In this document: piece after piece, positions 23,488-62,917 of the stretch
How the letters are laid out: each line of letters begins with the position of its first letter
Numbering within the stretch: position 1 is the stretch's first letter
IMG/VR virus record: IMGVR_UViG_3300031918_000730
Location: 1 to 64,000 of that record
Source of the DNA: a virus
DNA length: 64,000 nt
Direction: 5' to 3' (one strand)
Notes under the pieces: model-generated
Told to the model about the DNA's origin: nothing
Databases searched by the model: none
Seen by the model: the letters and a program-made list of their open reading frames with translations, nothing else
Position numbers and translations under genes: made by a program

Positions 23488-23536
23488 ATTCTTGTACACT
23501 TTTTAATGACTTTTTTTATTACCACGAAAATCTCAC

Positions 23537-23542
23537 TAAATA
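23537..23542 (+). promoter_or_regulatory. Late promoter of gp23 (leadered, SD AGGAGAGG)
   Basis: ACTAAATA after a terminator. Confidence 0.75.
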
Positions 23543-23595
23543 AAAGCAAGGTATCAGAGAAAGATCCTTAAACTTTTAGGAGAGGTAACTAGAAA

Positions 23596-24927
23596 ATGTC
23601 AAATACACTATACTCTAAGCATGGTTCACTCATGCGCAAGTGGGCACCAGTCATCGAGTCGACTCAGGTCGGTCGTAAGGTTGAAGGCACCCAGCAGGCG
23701 GCAGTATTGTCTGTCTGTCTTGAGAACCAGTACAAGCTGAATAAGGGCTACTTGCCAGAATCTCAGAACGTGACTTCTGATATGGCAACCTTCCAGCAGT
23801 ACGCACTACCAATCGTTCGCCGTATGCTCCCAGAGCTTTTGGCAACCAACGTGACTCAGGTCCAGCCTTTGACTGGCCCTACCGGACTTGCATATGCAAT
23901 GCGTTTTGCATACGACGACGGTAATCCATTGTATGATGGTAACGGTAACTTCATCGGAAACGAAATGGGTTACAACACCATCAAGCCTCAGTTCACTGGC
24001 CGTGGTACTTCTGCCGCTCCTTCTGCTTTCACCACTGGACAGGGCGAATTGCTCTCCAACTACTCTGAAGTAGCTGGCCAGAATACTTTGCAGAACCTCG
24101 GTTCCGCAAATGCACCAGACGGTACTCAGATTGCTCGTGGTAAGTTGGTTGTTGAGTCGAAGGCTGTCAAGGCTGGAACTCGCGCCATCAAGACTGCTTA
24201 CACTCTCGAACTCCAGCAGGATCTCGCCGCTGTTCACGGACAGGACATCGAGACTCTCATGATGGAAGGTTTGCAGTACGAACTTCAGCAGGAACTCGAC
24301 CGCGAGTTGCTCATCAGAATGCGCTCTGCCGCAATCAACACTGCACTGGGTGGAGCCGCTCCATTCACCATCGACGTGACCCCTAACGCAACCTCCGCAG
24401 GTAGCGTGCTTGCAGGTGACGGACGCTGGTCGCAGGAGAAGTTTGCAAACGTCGTGAATGCAATCATCGCCGCCGCTAACTACCTACGTCGCACCACTCG
24501 CCTTGGTCCGGGTAACTTTGCAATCGTCTCTCAGGACGTTGCAACTGCACTCCAGTCCTTGAACACTGGTGTCTTCACTGCTAACACTGCAGACGTTGAC
24601 GGTACTGTAATGGGTATCAAGATTGGAACTCTCCACGGTTCCAAGATCGACATCTACGTCGATACCTTCGCAAGCAACAGCTACGCGCTCGTTGGTTACA
24701 AGGGTCAGAAGCCGGGACACGCTGGTATCATCTATCTTCCTTACATTCCTCTGGTCGTCCAGAAGACTGTCGGTTCCGAAGATGCATCGCCTCGTATCAT
24801 CCTCAAGACTCGTTACGCAATCCTTGACAACTTGTTCGGTTCGGGCTTGTTCTACCGTGAGATTCGTTTCACTGGTCTGAACGGTTACTTCGGTAACGTG
24901 TTCGAGAACATCACCAACTTGTACTAA
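23596..24927 (+). CDS. gp23: Major capsid protein (T4 gp23)
   Basis: KWAPVIE, LENQ, VQPLTGPTGLAYAMR, YTLELQQDLAAVHGQDIE, GRWSQEKF, LVGYKG, AGIIYLPYIPL, KTRY. Confidence 0.97.
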   Translation: MSNTLYSKHGSLMRKWAPVIESTQVGRKVEGTQQAAVLSVCLENQYKLNKGYLPESQNVTSDMATFQQYALPIVRRMLPELLATNVTQVQPLTGPTGLAYAMRFAYDDGNPLYDGNGNFIGNEMGYNTIKPQFTGRGTSAAPSAFTTGQGELLSNYSEVAGQNTLQNLGSANAPDGTQIARGKLVVESKAVKAGTRAIKTAYTLELQQDLAAVHGQDIETLMMEGLQYELQQELDRELLIRMRSAAINTALGGAAPFTIDVTPNATSAGSVLAGDGRWSQEKFANVVNAIIAAANYLRRTTRLGPGNFAIVSQDVATALQSLNTGVFTANTADVDGTVMGIKIGTLHGSKIDIYVDTFASNSYALVGYKGQKPGHAGIIYLPYIPLVVQKTVGSEDASPRIILKTRYAILDNLFGSGLFYREIRFTGLNGYFGNVFENITNLY

Positions 24928-24953
24928 GCAAGATTAGTTGAGTTGAATCTTAA

Positions 24954-24980
24954 GGGGCCAGCAGAAATGCTGGCCTTTTT
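24954..24980 (+). terminator. Rho-independent terminator after gp23
   Basis: GGCCAGCA-GAAA-TGCTGGCC-TTTTT. Confidence 0.9.
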
Positions 24981-24981
24981 C

Positions 24982-25011
24982 GTTTACAAAAGTTGAATCT
25001 CAGAGTATCTT
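24982..25011 (+). promoter_or_regulatory. Early-type promoter with -35 (GTTTACA-17-TATCTT)
   Basis: TTTACA 24983-24988, 17 bp spacer, TATCTT 25006-25011; resembles the T4 early -35 GTTTAC. Confidence 0.5.
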
Positions 25012-25033
25012 AGTAGTACAAAGGGGGTGTGAC

Positions 25034-25375
25034 ATGATCGACATTCATACTGGAATCTGTGCTGAAGACGCAATCATTCTGAAGACTCGCAGACTCAACG
25101 CCGCACTTCTGAACGACGAGCACTTCGAAGCGTTCTACATTGGATACTACGACCGAATCAACGAAGAACTGGATGATCGCAAGTATAATAAGGTCGACTC
25201 GGTAAATACCATCCTCGAATTTTTCTATCACATCGGATACAGGTTTTCCGATAATGAAATCTACCTTTCCGGACTGGTACGAAAAAGCCTTCCGGGGTTG
25301 GAAGGCTTCAAGAAGTCGATCATTACCTATCTTGATCGAATGAATATCGTAGAGTATTACGAACGGGAGAAGTAA
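25034..25375 (+). CDS. Hypothetical protein
   Basis: 113 aa ORF, SD-like GGGGGTG, upstream promoter. Confidence 0.6.
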   Translation: MIDIHTGICAEDAIILKTRRLNAALLNDEHFEAFYIGYYDRINEELDDRKYNKVDSVNTILEFFYHIGYRFSDNEIYLSGLVRKSLPGLEGFKKSIITYLDRMNIVEYYEREK

Positions 25376-26166
25376 GAAAGGGATTCGGCGAAAGCCTCCA
25401 TGAACACTCTCTCAGATTCTAACATATGATTAGTCTGGTGATTCACGAATACGTCACTAGGCTTATCCTTTTCACTAAACTTAGGTACGTTAGAATTCAA
25501 AGCCTGAATTTCTCCGCGACTCTTGTTTAGATTATCCGCAATGGTATCGAGAATTTCGATCAATCCATCGTCGCTACCCAAAAGAACATCCTTGTAACCC
25601 TTTAGAGTTGCCTGATATGGGAACTCTGGATTATAGAACAATTCAATAGCATCCTTCAGGTGAGTTACTTCCTGCTTAAACGCTTCAATAGGCGACGAAG
25701 TACTCTTCTCAGATACGCCAACTATGATTTCCTTGATGAATGTGGCTAATCGATGGCCGGGATTCTTCTTAGCCTTGGCGAGTGCATTCTTCAAAATTCC
25801 ATCGGTTGATGGATTTGATAGGAACTTATACTTGGAATACAAAGACGCAATATGCTGTTTGGCATTTGGGTCATTTTCTGCTTTGTATTTCTCCATCAAG
25901 TCTTGCCTGATCCTAGTGATCTTATCCTCGAAGGTAGATAGTGCGTTGAACCTTACTGGGTCTGCACTATTTTCCTTCTCCATAGCCATGAGGGTCTTGT
26001 CTGCAATTCTACCTAGAGTGTTCGCGACTAATGCGGAAGACTCTAGGAAAGTCCTATTACCTACACATTCAGCTAGGAACTTAGGATAGCCTAGCTTCAT
26101 CTTAGGGGTTGCAGATTCGAATATTGCCTTTGGCATCATCTCATCGAGTGTAAAAGTAGTTCTCAT
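25357..26166 (-). CDS. Hypothetical late protein, probably head-internal
   Basis: TATAAATA plus SD GAGG; IFES/FLES/MLES/FAES motifs. Confidence 0.55.
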   Translation of the reverse strand: MRTTFTLDEMMPKAIFESATPKMKLGYPKFLAECVGNRTFLESSALVANTLGRIADKTLMAMEKENSADPVRFNALSTFEDKITRIRQDLMEKYKAENDPNAKQHIASLYSKYKFLSNPSTDGILKNALAKAKKNPGHRLATFIKEIIVGVSEKSTSSPIEAFKQEVTHLKDAIELFYNPEFPYQATLKGYKDVLLGSDDGLIEILDTIADNLNKSRGEIQALNSNVPKFSEKDKPSDVFVNHQTNHMLESERVFMEAFAESLSYFSRS

Positions 26167-26182
26167 TTATTAACCTCTTCGA

Positions 26183-26190
26183 TATTTATA
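26183..26190 (-). promoter_or_regulatory. Late promoter TATAAATA (leadered)
   Basis: Exact consensus upstream of 26166. Confidence 0.7.
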
Positions 26191-26212
26191 GATAGGTAGT
26201 CTACGAGGCAGT

Positions 26213-26773
26213 TTAGACAGGAATACTGGGGAACGCATTTCCGAAGTAGGTGTTGAGTCCCTTATAGACATTCTTGATCACCAATAGTTCGGACGGCACA
26301 ATTAGATTAGGGAACTCGTCTAGTATGCTGATGTTATCAACATCGCTACTGTCAGTTACAAATACACATGAATACGATTCAGTTGCGAACATATCAACAT
26401 ATACAGTTACGAATTTATTCAATACTGCAATAGCGTCAGCTTCTTCGTCATATGAACCTGTAATCACGTCAATCATGAACTCACGATCCGAATCATCTCC
26501 ATTACAACTGATTGACTGTAAGGCAGTCGCAACATCTGGAGAGACTAATACAGAAACGAACATTCTATTCTTGCAATCACGAACAACCGAAGCCGCAGTT
26601 ACTATCTGAGTGAATATCGTCTTAAATTTCTCCTGCGACCATCTTCCCATAAATGCTTCTCCGGGAGTCACATCGAGGATTTCAGGCTCACCTGCGAATG
26701 AATTTACGATACGTCCTAGTTCGAGAACTGCGGTAGTGTGTAGATCTAGGTTTTTTTCTTTTGTAGTTGTCAT
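26213..26773 (-). CDS. Truncated major-capsid paralog (A-domain-like segments only)
   Basis: Shares DVTP, GRWSQEKF, VSxDVATALQS, YVDxFA, GLNxYFGNxF with gp23 of this window. Confidence 0.85.
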   Translation of the reverse strand: MTTTKEKNLDLHTTAVLELGRIVNSFAGEPEILDVTPGEAFMGRWSQEKFKTIFTQIVTAASVVRDCKNRMFVSVLVSPDVATALQSISCNGDDSDREFMIDVITGSYDEEADAIAVLNKFVTVYVDMFATESYSCVFVTDSSDVDNISILDEFPNLIVPSELLVIKNVYKGLNTYFGNAFPSIPV

Positions 26774-26779
26774 GTATAT

Positions 26780-26800
26780 ATTGTAGCAGTCTACTAAATA
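26780..26800. promoter_or_regulatory. Divergent promoters: minus TGCTACAAT and plus late TAAATA
   Basis: 26788-26780 is 6 nt from ATG 26773; 26795-26800 is 5 nt from ATG 26806. Confidence 0.75.
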
Positions 26801-26805
26801 TTGGA

Positions 26806-27561
26806 ATGTTCATTTCAAGAGATCAGGCTAAGGAATTAATTTTGTTGGAGTTGGGCGCTCCGATGGTGGATATTAATCTGAAGCTACTTCCAGATGCAAT
26901 TAGCCCAATGAATCATCTAGACAAGGCTATCAATGAGACACTCGACCTATTCTTCAGATATAATACTGACGAGTCAGTGTATCAGACTTGGATAGTAATA
27001 CCTGCAGTCCCAAATCAGTCGATATATAAGGTACCTCAGAACATTGAAGGTGTCGTGGAAATGTGGCCTTCTACTGGAGGTATTCTACAATCACCGTTTA
27101 TGATGGTCGACACTAGTTCAATGGAAACACTGATCTCACTGAACGCCAACTTTAACGAGTGGGACATTGTATCATATACTGCATCTAGACTGTTCCTTGC
27201 CGAAGTAAACAAGGCAGTAGGTGAACAATTCTACCCTAAGCTAATCGTTAATGCGCAAGGTGAAAAGGAACTTCATATCTTCCCTCCACCTCGCAACACT
27301 GGATTCCCTAGGGCAATAGTCGGTAGGGCATATCGAAGAGCAGAATTAGGTAGCGTATACGGCCACCCATTCTTCGTGAAGATCGCATCCGGTCTTCTGA
27401 TGCAGATTTGGGGTCGTTCGTTGGGTAAGTTTAGTAGGACTATGCCCGGAGGTGGAACTGTAAATGCATCTGACATCAAGAATGACGGTAAGGAACTATT
27501 CGATACTTGGTTCACAATGCTAAGGAACGAGTCGGCACCTCCCCTAGGGGCGGCGTACTAA
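26806..27561 (+). CDS. gp13: Neck protein (T4 gp13)
   Basis: KELILLELGAPMVDINL; QIWGRSLGKF..MPGGGTVNA; PPLG; start reassigned to the ATG 5 nt after TAAATA. Confidence 0.85.
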   Translation: MFISRDQAKELILLELGAPMVDINLKLLPDAISPMNHLDKAINETLDLFFRYNTDESVYQTWIVIPAVPNQSIYKVPQNIEGVVEMWPSTGGILQSPFMMVDTSSMETLISLNANFNEWDIVSYTASRLFLAEVNKAVGEQFYPKLIVNAQGEKELHIFPPPRNTGFPRAIVGRAYRRAELGSVYGHPFFVKIASGLLMQIWGRSLGKFSRTMPGGGTVNASDIKNDGKELFDTWFTMLRNESAPPLGAAY

Positions 27562-27920
27562 GCGCACTGACTGAATTCTAGAATGTCAATATAGTAGCGT
27601 TCTTCGCCTATTTTCGAAAAGATGGTATACTTGCCATCTTTTTTTATTACCTGCGGGTTCTTATGTTTCTTCAATGTCAGTTCATATGCGAACTTCTCGA
27701 ACTCTTCAGGTGAACTCACCTCAGTTTCGAGTTGTTGCTTCTTAGTCATCCCACCTTCAATCATACTGAAGGCCATTCCGGCCACCATAGTCTGGGTACT
27801 ATACTTGACGACTTTTTTGCGAGATCCGATGTGCTTTGCGGTTTTGAGATCATTCGCCGCAATCATTCTATTTCTTACACTGTCTGCGCTCTTACCTGTA
27901 TATCCAGAAAGTTCTATCAC
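27558..27920 (-). CDS. Hypothetical protein
   Basis: 120 aa ORF abutting the sigma gene. Confidence 0.5.
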   Translation of the reverse strand: MIELSGYTGKSADSVRNRMIAANDLKTAKHIGSRKKVVKYSTQTMVAGMAFSMIEGGMTKKQQLETEVSSPEEFEKFAYELTLKKHKNPQVIKKDGKYTIFSKIGEERYYIDILEFSQCA

Positions 27921-29147
27921 TTAAAACTCCAAATTAGAATGTGATTCCCAGCCAGTGTCGATAGCATATGCGTCGAGTAGAGTCTTATTCTTACCTAGAA
28001 CCTTCTTCAGGTTTGCAATTGCCTTCTTGCGAATCCTGTCATATTCATTTGGTTGAATATTCAACTCAGTGATGATTTCTTCCTTACTCTTAATCTCACT
28101 ACGGGGGTTTATCCCGAAGTGATACTTCAAGTAATACTGTTCGGCGTCATTGTTCACAGATTCAACGTAATTACGGATCAACGATCTCAGGTCTTTGATT
28201 GTGACGTTGTCGGACTCGTCGATGATGTAATTGTCGATGAGGTTATCTTCGAAGGAGGCACCTACCGATTGCTGGTTCTTATGTTCGTGGAACCTAGCGT
28301 CAGTGTCGATCTGATAGTAAGCGAAGGACACATCAAGATTAGAAAGGCTAGATACCTTCTTCTTCATATGAACAATTATCTCTTCTTCCATCGGATCTCT
28401 ATTGAGCCTATGTCGTAGTTCCTTGCGGATTTTCTCGACTTCCTTAGCCTGCTCCCGGACATTGACAGGTATTCTGATTAGTGAATCCTTGTCGGCGATA
28501 GCCCTATTGATAGACGCTTTGATCCATTGAGATGCGTAGGTGCTGAATTTGATACCTAGGCTACAATTGAAGAGTTCGATTGCCCTGCGAAGACCTAGAG
28601 TGCCCTCGGAGAACAAGTCTTTCACTGTCAAATCTACAGTGTTCTTATACGACGACAATATTCGGAGTATGATTTTCACGTTCGACAGGTATATCTTGTC
28701 AATATGGTACTGCATGTCCTTCTGCATGACGTTGAAAATCATGTTCGGGGTTCCATTTGACTCGTATGCGGTCAGGACTTCACGGTAGATGTCGTATGAT
28801 ACATTGAAGTTGTCGGAGTATTCAATGATCTGCTCCCTTGTCATGTCAGCGATAGATGAAACAAACGACAAAGTCATCTTAGAGTTGTAGTCGTAGTCCT
28901 CTGCGCAGACAAAGGTGTCTGTCATGAATGCTTCATGTGCATTGCCAGTGGCAATGAGGTGCGTTACCACTTGCAGGAACTTGGCGAATGCAGTGTCATC
29001 TGCGAGACAGCTACGGAAGATCCTGTTCTTGGTCGCGTTGATATTGGAAAATACGAAAAATTCCTGCTCCTTGAGCAGAATTGGATTTCTAGCGACAGTG
29101 TTTTCCAACGAACTCTTGAGTTCGTTGAACTCTACTAGGAAGGCCAT
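27921..29147 (-). CDS. Phage-encoded sigma70-family (RpoD-like) sigma factor
   Basis: Region 2 DLFSEGTLGLRRAIELF..GIKFSTYASQWIKASINRAI; region 3 LIRIPV..LNRDPMEEEI; region 4 YHFGI...KAIANLK. Confidence 0.9.
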   Translation of the reverse strand: MAFLVEFNELKSSLENTVARNPILLKEQEFFVFSNINATKNRIFRSCLADDTAFAKFLQVVTHLIATGNAHEAFMTDTFVCAEDYDYNSKMTLSFVSSIADMTREQIIEYSDNFNVSYDIYREVLTAYESNGTPNMIFNVMQKDMQYHIDKIYLSNVKIILRILSSYKNTVDLTVKDLFSEGTLGLRRAIELFNCSLGIKFSTYASQWIKASINRAIADKDSLIRIPVNVREQAKEVEKIRKELRHRLNRDPMEEEIIVHMKKKVSSLSNLDVSFAYYQIDTDARFHEHKNQQSVGASFEDNLIDNYIIDESDNVTIKDLRSLIRNYVESVNNDAEQYYLKYHFGINPRSEIKSKEEIITELNIQPNEYDRIRKKAIANLKKVLGKNKTLLDAYAIDTGWESHSNLEF

Positions 29148-29176
29148 TAAAACTCCATTTCGGGCGAACTAGAGAA

Positions 29177-29767
29177 TCAAAATACCTTCGGGAAAATAGC
29201 CTCCATCAACTTGGTCAGGCCACCGAAGCGCACGCTCTCCGACTTATTCCTAAAGTAATTTAAGGTCTGCGCATCTGTCAACCCCATAATGAAAGAAGTG
29301 TCGATGTATAGCGACACCACCTCAGAAATTCGCTTCTCGAAACTCAAGTCGTCGGAGTCGAGAGAGCTAGGGTTGTCGAAGCGTTCAGATATTACCTGTA
29401 GGAATCTGGTTGTCGAGTTAATGATCGCTTCTTGAGATTCGTCATTTAGAGTGTTCACTTCATCTACGTCGACGAGTTCGACCTCAATGTCGTTGTCTTT
29501 ACTGTATTTCACAAATACGTCTAAGAAATACGAGCAACCATTAAGATATGCTTCAATCTGCGCCCCGAAGATTTCACCGTAGATCTTCTGGGCTTTGTCG
29601 TTCTTATCGTCGTCTTCTACGAATGAACTACATTCTCCGATGATGTACTCTGAGAGCTTCTCCTTCACTTCCTGAAAATCCACCCCGACCTGAAGCATCG
29701 CGATTGAGATCTTGTTGGATGAATCTGCGTACTCTTCTTCTGTCAGTGGATTATCTTCATTGCTCAT
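29177..29767 (-). CDS. Acidic hypothetical protein (first gene of sigma operon)
   Basis: Start reassigned to MSNEDNP, 7 nt after TGCTACAAT. Confidence 0.6.
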   Translation of the reverse strand: MSNEDNPLTEEEYADSSNKISIAMLQVGVDFQEVKEKLSEYIIGECSSFVEDDDKNDKAQKIYGEIFGAQIEAYLNGCSYFLDVFVKYSKDNDIEVELVDVDEVNTLNDESQEAIINSTTRFLQVISERFDNPSSLDSDDLSFEKRISEVVSLYIDTSFIMGLTDAQTLNYFRNKSESVRFGGLTKLMEAIFPKVF

Positions 29768-52527: not shown

Positions 52528-52536
52528 TGCTACAAT
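52528..52536 (+). promoter_or_regulatory. Extended -10 TGCTACAAT, leaderless spacing (primase)
   Basis: 7 nt to ATG 52544. Confidence 0.7.
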
Positions 52537-52543
52537 CCTCTAC

Positions 52544-53677
52544 ATGGAGGAAAGCAACGTCTTCGTGTCCCATTGGAACCATGCGGTAACCACCCCGCCA
52601 TCTAAGTTCCATGAGTACTTGACTAAATTCGGGGTAGAGGGTATTGAACCCAAGGGTAGGAAATTCCTATTCAGATGCCCTATATGCGGTGACTCTGCAA
52701 CTATTAAGTCGAAGAAGCGTGGATACTTAATCACGAATATCGACGGTAATGGCGCAATGGGATGTCATAACTGCGGATACAAATCATCATTCTCTAATTT
52801 CCTGAAGAACGAGAGCATTGGACTATACCGACAGTGGATACAGGATGTATTTGTAGGTATTTCACTAGACGACAGGGTACAGGAAGACAATCTCAACTAT
52901 GTAGAAGTTGCACTGAACGAGGAAGTGGTAGATTACTCACTATTTCTCCCATTGGCCAAGGTCAGCAACTCGCAGACATATAAAAAGGCAATGGAATTCG
53001 TATGCAGTAGGAAAATACCAAGGAAGCACGCGAGGCACTTCCTATATTGTGAGTCTGGAAAATACGCCAATCGAGTAATTATCCCCCACTACAATAAAGA
53101 CATGACATATAAGCACTTCGAAGCAAGAGATTTGCGCCCGAAGCCATTCGTCAAGTACCTATATCCAGAGAACTGGACTCCAAATAATTACAATCTTCCA
53201 CATCTCGACTTAGGCGTTCCATATTTCGCATTCGAGGGCGTGATAGACAGTCAATTCCTGAATAATTCAGGTGCATGTGGTGGCGCTCAGAAGTACGGAT
53301 ACTTCTTCGAGGCAATTCATAGGTCACTTCATCGCAATGGAATTGTATTCGCTGACGGAGACGAAGATGGAGTGCGAGTTTCCTTCAAGTATTTGAAGAA
53401 GGGCTTTAAGGTCTTCAAGTGGACCCGAGAGATGTTAGCTCTTGGAGTACATGACCTGAATGGACTTATCCAAAAAGGCTTTTTCAAGCCAGATGAGATG
53501 AATGCTGACGGAACGGTTAAGACTGAAGTGATAATGAAGCATGTGATCGAGCCTACAATTGGCGAAATACTATGCTTTCAGATGGATGCGCTTGATTTGG
53601 GTGTAAATGTTCTAGAAAGGAAACAGGATGTTAAGTTTGTTAAGCAAGAACGTCAAGATAATTGGTTTACATGGTAG
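52544..53677 (+). CDS. gp61: DNA primase (T4 gp61)
   Basis: FRCPICGDS..K.RGY..CHNCG; RVIIP; FEGVIDS; DGDEDG TOPRIM; DLN. Confidence 0.93.
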   Translation: MEESNVFVSHWNHAVTTPPSKFHEYLTKFGVEGIEPKGRKFLFRCPICGDSATIKSKKRGYLITNIDGNGAMGCHNCGYKSSFSNFLKNESIGLYRQWIQDVFVGISLDDRVQEDNLNYVEVALNEEVVDYSLFLPLAKVSNSQTYKKAMEFVCSRKIPRKHARHFLYCESGKYANRVIIPHYNKDMTYKHFEARDLRPKPFVKYLYPENWTPNNYNLPHLDLGVPYFAFEGVIDSQFLNNSGACGGAQKYGYFFEAIHRSLHRNGIVFADGDEDGVRVSFKYLKKGFKVFKWTREMLALGVHDLNGLIQKGFFKPDEMNADGTVKTEVIMKHVIEPTIGEILCFQMDALDLGVNVLERKQDVKFVKQERQDNWFTW

Positions 53678-62171: not shown

Positions 62172-62588
62172 ATGGACCATACTAAGAAAACAACTTTCGC
62201 TGGATTCGTTAACATTGATAAGTCCAATAAGTATTGGATGGAAGGGCACTTCGAACACGGAGAAGACGCCCCTACACTATTCAGATTCAATACCAAGGAA
62301 GAGCGAGATACTGTTCAAGAGGTTGCCCAGTCGTATCTCGATAATTGGGGATGCGATGCGCTTGAACTTGTAATATTCGAAGCAAAGGCAAGACATGTGG
62401 TGACTTTGAAAAAAAGGACCGAGAGTGAAATCACATTAGCTAGGCAGAAATCTAAGAGTGATGCCGAAGCAAAGCGTGAACGCGCAGTCGCTGAAGTTGC
62501 TGTAGTGTCTCAGGTTGAGACAGGCACTCAACCAGACACCGCCCCTAAGAAGAGGGGTAGGAAACCCAAGACTAGTGCTACAATATAG
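62172..62588 (+). CDS. Hypothetical protein with C-terminal AT-hook-like KKRGRKPK
   Basis: 138 aa ORF. Confidence 0.55.
   Translation: MDHTKKTTFAGFVNIDKSNKYWMEGHFEHGEDAPTLFRFNTKEERDTVQEVAQSYLDNWGCDALELVIFEAKARHVVTLKKRTESEITLARQKSKSDAEAKRERAVAEVAVVSQVETGTQPDTAPKKRGRKPKTSATI
62576..62584 (+). promoter_or_regulatory. Extended -10 TGCTACAAT, leaderless spacing
   Basis: 6 nt to ATG 62591. Confidence 0.7.
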
Positions 62589-62590
62589 GC

Positions 62591-62917
62591 ATGAGCACAA
62601 AACTTAACCTGTCACAGCGCCTCTGGCTTATCGATTCTATCGGTAGCCTTCCATCAACCACTGAGAGAATCAAGGAAGCCGATGGATTCATCGCAATCCT
62701 TGCACCTAACGACGCCGAACTGAGTGTCGAAGGTTTGAATTTCACCGCAGACGAGAATGGTCTACAGTGGGATACTGCAGTTGAAGCCGAGAAGGTTCCT
62801 GCACTTGAAGTCGAAATCCCAGAGATCCTATACTCTGCACTGAAGGATAAATTTTCAGTTCAGATGAAAGATCCTACTGGACTTGACTTGGAAATGATCG
62901 ACCTACTCTCCCTGTAA
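62591..62917 (+). CDS. Hypothetical protein
   Basis: 108 aa ORF, TGCTACAAT 6 nt upstream. Confidence 0.6.
   Translation: MSTKLNLSQRLWLIDSIGSLPSTTERIKEADGFIAILAPNDAELSVEGLNFTADENGLQWDTAVEAEKVPALEVEIPEILYSALKDKFSVQMKDPTGLDLEMIDLLSL

Follow-up and report, generated by a model that had tools for sequence, protein, structure and literature searches.

[quoted passage not shown] We refer to this protein as mini-gp23, or the mini. The window, that is, the whole stretch of DNA analysed here, comprises 64,000 nucleotides of a 79,874-base IMG/VR record (IMGVR_UViG_3300031918_000730) with a completeness of 26% (CheckV). A close relative, G001, is a complete genome of 306,252 bases with terminal repeats. 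The T4-like gene set includes portal, prohead protease, gp23, a gp55-like late factor, UvsY, UvsX and UvsW, together with a gp46/47-like nuclease, a family-B DNA polymerase, a primase and an RpoD-like sigma factor (27921–29147); in this content it matches the 'group 2' jumbo phages described by Iyer et al. (PMC7824862). An identical sequence is present in three peat metagenome runs with 0 variants, and no RNA run is listed among the sequencing runs found to carry it.

Relationship of the mini to gp23

The parent paralog of the mini, a gp23-type major capsid protein of 443 aa (23596–24927, plus strand, late box cactaaataaaa), is encoded in the same window, and BLASTP aligned mini residues 30–184 with residues 256–439 of this gp23 (E 3e-15). 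The mini matches PF07068 with 33.6 bits (cut-off 24.4; E 3.7e-8) over profile positions 196–314 of 376 only, and it is assigned to PHROG 138, major head protein. Alignment of the profiles of eight minis and 37 gp23 C-terminal halves by hhalign (99.5%, E 1.4e-22) paired mini residues 27–139 with gp23 residues 252–368. These matches identify the mini as a truncated paralog of the gp23 that the phage itself encodes. A preliminary description of the locus had listed five colinear matches between the two proteins, all of which were found again (mini/gp23: LDVTP/IDVTP, GRWSQEKF in identical form, VSPDVATALQS/VSQDVATALQS, VYVDMFATESY/IYVDTFASNSY and GLNTYFGNAF/GLNGYFGNVF).

Past residue 139 the profile alignment ends, and a convincing match is found only in the clade-specific tail GLNxYFGNxF; on the gp23 side, the alignment extends over residues ~227–368 plus the tail. 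The two losses that had been proposed are evident in the alignments: the first ~225 residues of gp23 have no counterpart in the mini, and ~50 gp23 residues (GYKG...AGIIYLPY...KTRY...) are swapped for an acidic linker of ~25 residues. The GLNxYFGNxF C-terminus is common only to the minis and to gp23 of the same phage clade, and G172, Y176 and F177 are invariant across all minis. A tag of the form R-x-x-K-[LI]-x-x-[LI] within the last ~16 residues was found in 0 of the 357 ORFs of the window; the mini ends in ...GLNTYFGNAFPSIPV. The protein can be divided into half a spine helix (residues ~4–21, from the predicted fold), an A-domain core (~30–138), the acidic linker that replaces the P-domain hairpin (139–163), and the last A-domain strand with the GLNxYFGNxF tail (164–186).

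With only the eight minis as input, the AlphaFold2 model was unusable (pLDDT 41). A usable model (pLDDT 73.3, pTM 0.73) was obtained by adding gp23 A-domain rows, cut before the P-hairpin, to the alignment; its core leans on these gp23 rows, while the C-terminal third is informed by the minis only. Helices are predicted at residues 4–21, 44–68 and 79–87, and strands at 31–34, 73–77, 101–103, 114–118, 122–126, 134–138 and, as the last, 165–171. Foldseek ranked T4 gp23 chains first for this model, and VIA-align matched model residues 1–173 to residues 293–521 of T4 gp23 from the unexpanded head (Z 12.1, rmsd 3.7 Å; 148 residues aligned, of 229 positions); other HK97-fold capsid and encapsulin proteins reached Z 7–10. 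As modelled, the mini retains the C-terminal half of the spine helix, the A-domain including its final strand, and the C-terminal tail. Nothing in the mini corresponds to the propeptide, the N-arm, the insertion domain and its linkers (which are equivalent to the E-loop), the N-terminal half of the spine helix or the P-domain hairpin. Profile alignment and model thus bear out the idea of a stand-alone A-domain, with half of the spine helix and the tail kept in addition.

The distribution of contacts in the T4 head indicates what such a truncation would cost. There, contacts between capsomers are made by the parts that the mini lacks, which also account for some of the contacts within capsomers; those at the capsomer core come from the A-domains and the A-loop, and in the unexpanded capsomer the A-loop dominates the contacts between A-domains (PMC9546572). 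Of the N-arm, the E-loop or I-domain linkers, the full P-domain and the A-domain that make up a complete HK97-type subunit, the mini has only the last. It lacks every HK97 element that ties the lattice together, in both the alignment and the model, and is therefore no normal shell subunit, in agreement with the preliminary description; the AlphaFold monomer, which had been suggested as a check on this point, shows an incomplete fold.

The mini and its parent also differ in charge. The mini is acidic (pI 4.3, net charge −14) and the corresponding half of gp23 basic (pI 9.3, net charge +4). The excess negative charge is limited to two segments, and the core is charge-matched to gp23. The first segment, residues 90–113, is the counterpart of the A-loop region of gp23 (−8 versus −1), and the second is the linker at 139–163 (−6 versus +2 in gp23). 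Co-folding of gp23 with the mini gave a score of 0.35, against 0.46 for the control, a difference that counts neither for nor against binding.

Origin and divergence of the mini family

A search of 5.8 billion proteins returned four homologs of the mini with 70–84% identity and lengths of 186–188 aa, and two distant minis of 183 and 192 aa came from an exhaustive HMMER search across 1.84 billion representatives; the Logan homologs of the mini are denoted P0002–P0007. Another mini, of 187 aa and 30% identical to that of the window, is encoded by the IMG/VR contig L001. The eight intact minis are 183–192 aa long and share identities of 26–84%, and the sole indel among the five close minis is one 2-residue insertion. 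No match to the mini was obtained in the INPHARED phage collection by megablast or by tblastn at 1e-3, and scans of metagenome contigs gave full-length gp23 genes only and no additional minis. The ESM Atlas yielded only short capsid-like clusters (scores 0.89–0.92), which are leads at best.

The mini is the most diverged gene of its neighbourhood when the window is compared with L001. Its identity of 30% contrasts with 86% for gp23, 80% for the neighbouring gene p264, and 43–49% for sigma, p113, p120 and p269, and the tree path between the two phages measures ~3.3 changes per site for the mini versus ~0.08 for gp23. A wastewater run, X5 (library labelled RNA-Seq cDNA, rated probably DNA), contains a relative that is ~85–95% alike over gp23, p269, p264 and sigma (window 23500–29200). 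Its cover of the mini is partial and weak, the relative being too diverged there for per-site data, as would be expected if the mini diverges faster than the rest of the locus.

Such divergence, together with the dispensability of the mini in relatives, could reflect the decay of a functionless remnant left by a partial duplication of gp23. We examined this with a substitution-only neutral simulation started from the coding sequence of the window mini, in which 20%, 5% and 0% of runs retained an open frame once identity had fallen to 84%, 70% and 30%, respectively (0 of 300 frames at 30%). The eight known minis are intact, have nearly constant length and conserved core motifs down to 26% identity, and in combination with the simulation they lead us to reject decay, a reading that we now find barely credible. 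It is further at odds with the promoter class, which is common to the window mini and its 30%-identical ortholog in L001. The preliminary description had held that decay in relatives, or absence from them, would mark the gene as a pseudogene; a search of relatives for the same truncation instead produced intact homologs of like length. By these comparisons, the mini is a selected, protein-coding gene.

A tree built on the 128 columns of the shared core places all minis in a single clade (support 100/97), which joins between the gp23 proteins of the window's clade and other T4-like gp23. This position, taken with the clade-specific tail, suggests that the minis descend from a single ancient partial duplication of gp23 in this lineage. 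A partial duplication of the homing-endonuclease type was also considered and rejected, as the mini copy is ancient (30% identity), lies on the opposite strand and has its own promoter.

A second family of truncated gp23 genes was encountered in G001. Its member there encodes 262 aa (L099:2827–3612, plus strand, corresponding to G001:C1:~154826–155611) and forms, with P0009–P0012, a family of five proteins of 258–262 aa. Residues 89–198 of this family align with gp23 residues 218–365 (95.8%, E 7.9e-9) and with the mini profile (97.1%, E 5e-11). After an 88-residue N-terminal extension unlike gp23 come the complete spine helix and an A-domain whose helix is shortened. The G001 gene is located in an accessory-gene region ~68 kb from the p269/p264 junction, which is mini-free in that genome; the second family was not found in the incomplete record from which the window derives.

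Conservation within the minis is divided between inherited and new sequence. The gp23 hallmarks GRWSQEKF, SP, D127 and the GLNxYF tail are invariant in all eight. The mini-specific invariant residues N147, I150, L151 and E153 sit in the new linker and not in gp23-derived sequence; the linker motif is N-x-S-I-L-[DE]-E, with N-x-x-I-L-x-E as its invariant positions. These linker residues, the strong charge shift and the unrelated N-terminal extension of the second family would all suit an A-domain fold that has been recruited for a job unrelated to the capsid, such as binding a host protein via the acidic loops and the linker motif. We consider this neofunctionalisation rather unlikely, since the gp23 hallmarks have stayed invariant in the eight minis while the rest has diverged, although the needs of fold stability could also explain their retention.

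Locus and promoter class

The mini is flanked by two genes with T4-type late boxes. Directly downstream lies p269 (25357–26166, minus strand), a conserved gene with no Pfam or PHROG family, whose late box CTATAAATA is located at 26183–26191 (minus strand). On the other side, p264 (also p251; 26806–27561, plus strand), a neck or adaptor-like late gene of PHROG 211 with the late box ACTAAATAT at 26793–26801 (plus strand), is transcribed divergently from the mini. Pfam has no family for p264, nor for the genes around the second truncated-gp23 family. The automatically assigned TTG start of p264 (26767) would overlap the ATG of the mini; judging from L001, the ATG at 26806, which gives a protein of 251 aa, is likely to be the true start. 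The 32-nt gap between the divergent starts of the mini and p264 contains both a TGCTACAAT box and the late box ACTAAATAT, and no terminator-like site was found in the interval between the mini and p269.

The gene order in L001 is that of the window (sigma, p120, p264, mini, p269, p113, gp23). Synteny is also kept in four relatives, L002, L003, L004 and L048, in which nothing lies between p269 and p264. In L003 and L004 these two genes are ~45 nt apart, and the spacer carries two back-to-back late boxes; the cassette of the window, which consists of promoter and ORF (26196–26790, minus strand, ~595 bp), is placed exactly between the same two late boxes. L004 has the highest neighbour-gene scores to the window, yet its junction is mini-free, and the mini-free junction of L003 lies in the 100%-complete genome G001. 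The gp23 proteins of the four relatives are 91–92% identical to that of the window. The mini has its own promoter, is inserted between conserved genes and is patchy in close relatives, as is characteristic of a moron-like cassette, and judged by this pattern of presence and absence it is an optional accessory gene among close relatives.

The genes p113 (plus strand) and p269 (minus strand), at window positions 25034–26166, are kept beside gp23 in all six loci of the clade. As with p269, no Pfam or PHROG family was found for p113, and the two may be unrecognised head-associated proteins.

The promoter assigned to the mini is a TGCTACAAT box of the extended −10 type (26780–26788, minus strand); the 6 nt between it and the ATG contain no Shine-Dalgarno sequence. 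The window contains six copies of TGCTACAAT versus 0.54 expected, a number reached in 0 of 100 shuffles. Besides the mini, the box stands before a primase-like gene, the family-B DNA polymerase gene, that of a gp47-like phosphoesterase and two unknown genes. TGCTATAAT is found upstream of the UvsX-like gene and also 27 nt before the ATG of the 30%-identical mini in L001, there with a GGAGG ribosome-binding site. TAAATA-type T4 late boxes stand before gp23, p269, p264, and tail and head genes, and a gp55-like factor is encoded; the box of the mini is TGCTACAAT and not the T4-type late promoter TATAAATA that is read by gp55. The proposal that the mini uses a promoter of the replication-gene type in place of a late box therefore holds at the sequence level, and the same class is also found before the L001 ortholog. 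From this we infer that expression of the mini would precede that of the late head proteins or be uncoupled from it.

At four of the six TGCTACAAT boxes (26780–26773, minus; 29783–29767, minus; 52528–52546, plus; 62576–62593, plus), an ATG follows only 6–7 nt on and a Shine-Dalgarno sequence is lacking. If the box is a −10 element, transcripts from these sites would be leaderless. The TGCTACAAT boxes of the polymerase and gp47-like genes have normal leaders with GGAG-type sites.

Promoter class and distribution also bear on whether the mini works in the head. T4 gp24, the head vertex protein (PDB 1YUE), is like the mini a gp23 paralog within the same phage and matches the mini model with Z 8.3, but it is the product of a late gene and a near-full-length HK97-fold subunit that forms pentamers in the shell, whereas the mini, with 186 aa, is a single domain and not a paralog of this kind. 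A PDB sequence search with the mini profile reached T4 gp23 and did not reach gp24. No gp24-like second full-length gp23 paralog was detected with the gp23 profile in G001 or in the record of the window, so that the vertices in this clade are probably built from gp23 or from an unrecognisable protein. The missing gp24, and the position of the mini beside head and neck genes, could indicate a minor virion component in which A-domain rings or single copies plug or cap the vertices or the surroundings of the portal. Such a role is quite improbable in our view: the mini has neither a P-domain nor linkers for anchoring in the shell, it is missing at the locus in close relatives, and its promoter is of a non-late class while all structural neighbours have late boxes. 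Moreover, T4-like phages without gp24 are generally taken to build their vertices from gp23 itself.

Another possible role lies in head assembly, where the mini could bind nascent gp23 through the A-domain faces that normally meet capsomer neighbours. Serving as a holdase or timer, it would hold off premature or aberrant polymerisation while scaffold and portal are not yet ready; alternatively, it would adjust head size by capping or by acting as a dominant-negative subunit. In favour of such a role, the best-conserved elements of the A-domain and the C-terminal tail of gp23 are retained in the mini, T4 A-domains and A-loop make capsomer-core contacts (PMC9546572), the acidic loops could pair with the basic half of gp23, and the gene lies within the head-gene neighbourhood. 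An assembly modulator nevertheless seems unlikely to us. Four close relatives with gp23 91–92% identical to that of the window have no mini at the junction, a partner of so conserved a gp23 would not be expected to drift to 30% identity, and an essential assembly factor would be expected to have a late promoter.

The mini as a candidate capsid mimic

T4-type gp23 (PF07068, HK97 fold; PDB 7VRT, 5VF3 and 8GMO) is homologous to the mini over half of the spine helix, the A-domain and the C-terminus, and the most invariant motif of the gp23 family, G-R-W-S-Q-E-K, is present in the mini. The mini differs from gp23 in being 186 rather than 443 aa long, acidic rather than basic, preceded by a promoter of a non-late class, optional, and fast-evolving. 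Of the readings considered here we favour, as possible though short of probable, a soluble capsid mimic directed against a host or satellite factor in a conflict. Produced ahead of the late head proteins, or without regard to their timing, the mini would be a soluble monomer resembling the part of gp23 that forms capsomers, and would occupy or divert a factor that recognises the gp23 A-domain. Candidates for this factor are a host capsid-sensing immune receptor and a capsid-hijacking protein of a satellite or rival phage. The mini itself would not be a virion building block; the two acidic loops, which stand in place of the A-loop and the P-hairpin, may bar it from capsomers or make its binding unproductive.

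A conflict gene of this kind is suggested by the non-late promoter class, the moron-like cassette, the patchiness, the fastest divergence of the neighbourhood, and the retention of the very domain that forms capsomers. An accessory gene engaged in conflict would suit the patchy distribution, the fast evolution and the promoter better than an essential assembly or vertex part would. Several points weigh against mimicry. Published sensor binding involves both shape and charge complementarity, and the mini is acidic where the corresponding half of gp23 is basic, although the excess charge lies in two loops outside the core. A mimic that binds a sensor could equally trigger it. Fast evolution and patchiness would fit relaxed constraint on a dispensable gene just as well.

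The known capsid-sensing receptors of hosts (Avs7, Avs8, Avs10, Dsr1, CapRel and Lit) are unrelated to the mini. A further comparison is with Ccm of SaPIbov5-type satellites, a capsid homolog that redirects helper assembly (PMC8569155) and that, like the mini in this reading, is a diverged copy of a major capsid protein put to a use other than building the normal shell of its encoder, in a setting of conflict. Ccm is satellite-encoded, is a complete capsid homolog and co-assembles into shells, whereas the mini is phage-encoded and lacks the lattice-forming parts. In the searchable literature, we found no description of a phage-encoded A-domain decoy, a truncated capsid paralog or a stand-alone derivative of the gp23 A-domain, and the mini is a particularly clean lineage of an apparently unpublished gene class. 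A more specific proposal, which we regard as doubtful, is that the mini is the first phage-encoded structural-protein decoy: a mimic consisting of the A-domain only and made from a middle-type promoter ahead of gp23 accumulation, which would bind the pocket of Avs7, Avs8, Avs10, Dsr1 or functionally similar receptors, or satellite capsid-hijackers, without activating them, and which would be a single lineage within a wide and so far undescribed group of capsid-fragment genes carried by giant T4-like phages.

Capsid proteins have emerged as major triggers of bacterial immunity, and several immune receptors have been reported to grip exactly the A-domain face that the mini retains. The mini would offer a convenient tool for finding out whether mimicry helps phages to counter capsid sensing or, alternatively, whether dominant partial subunits regulate head assembly. 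The family is small and clean, with eight minis, clear presence and absence, and a second, independent truncated family in a complete genome. As a natural, minimal and probably soluble A-domain, the mini could also serve structural and binding studies.
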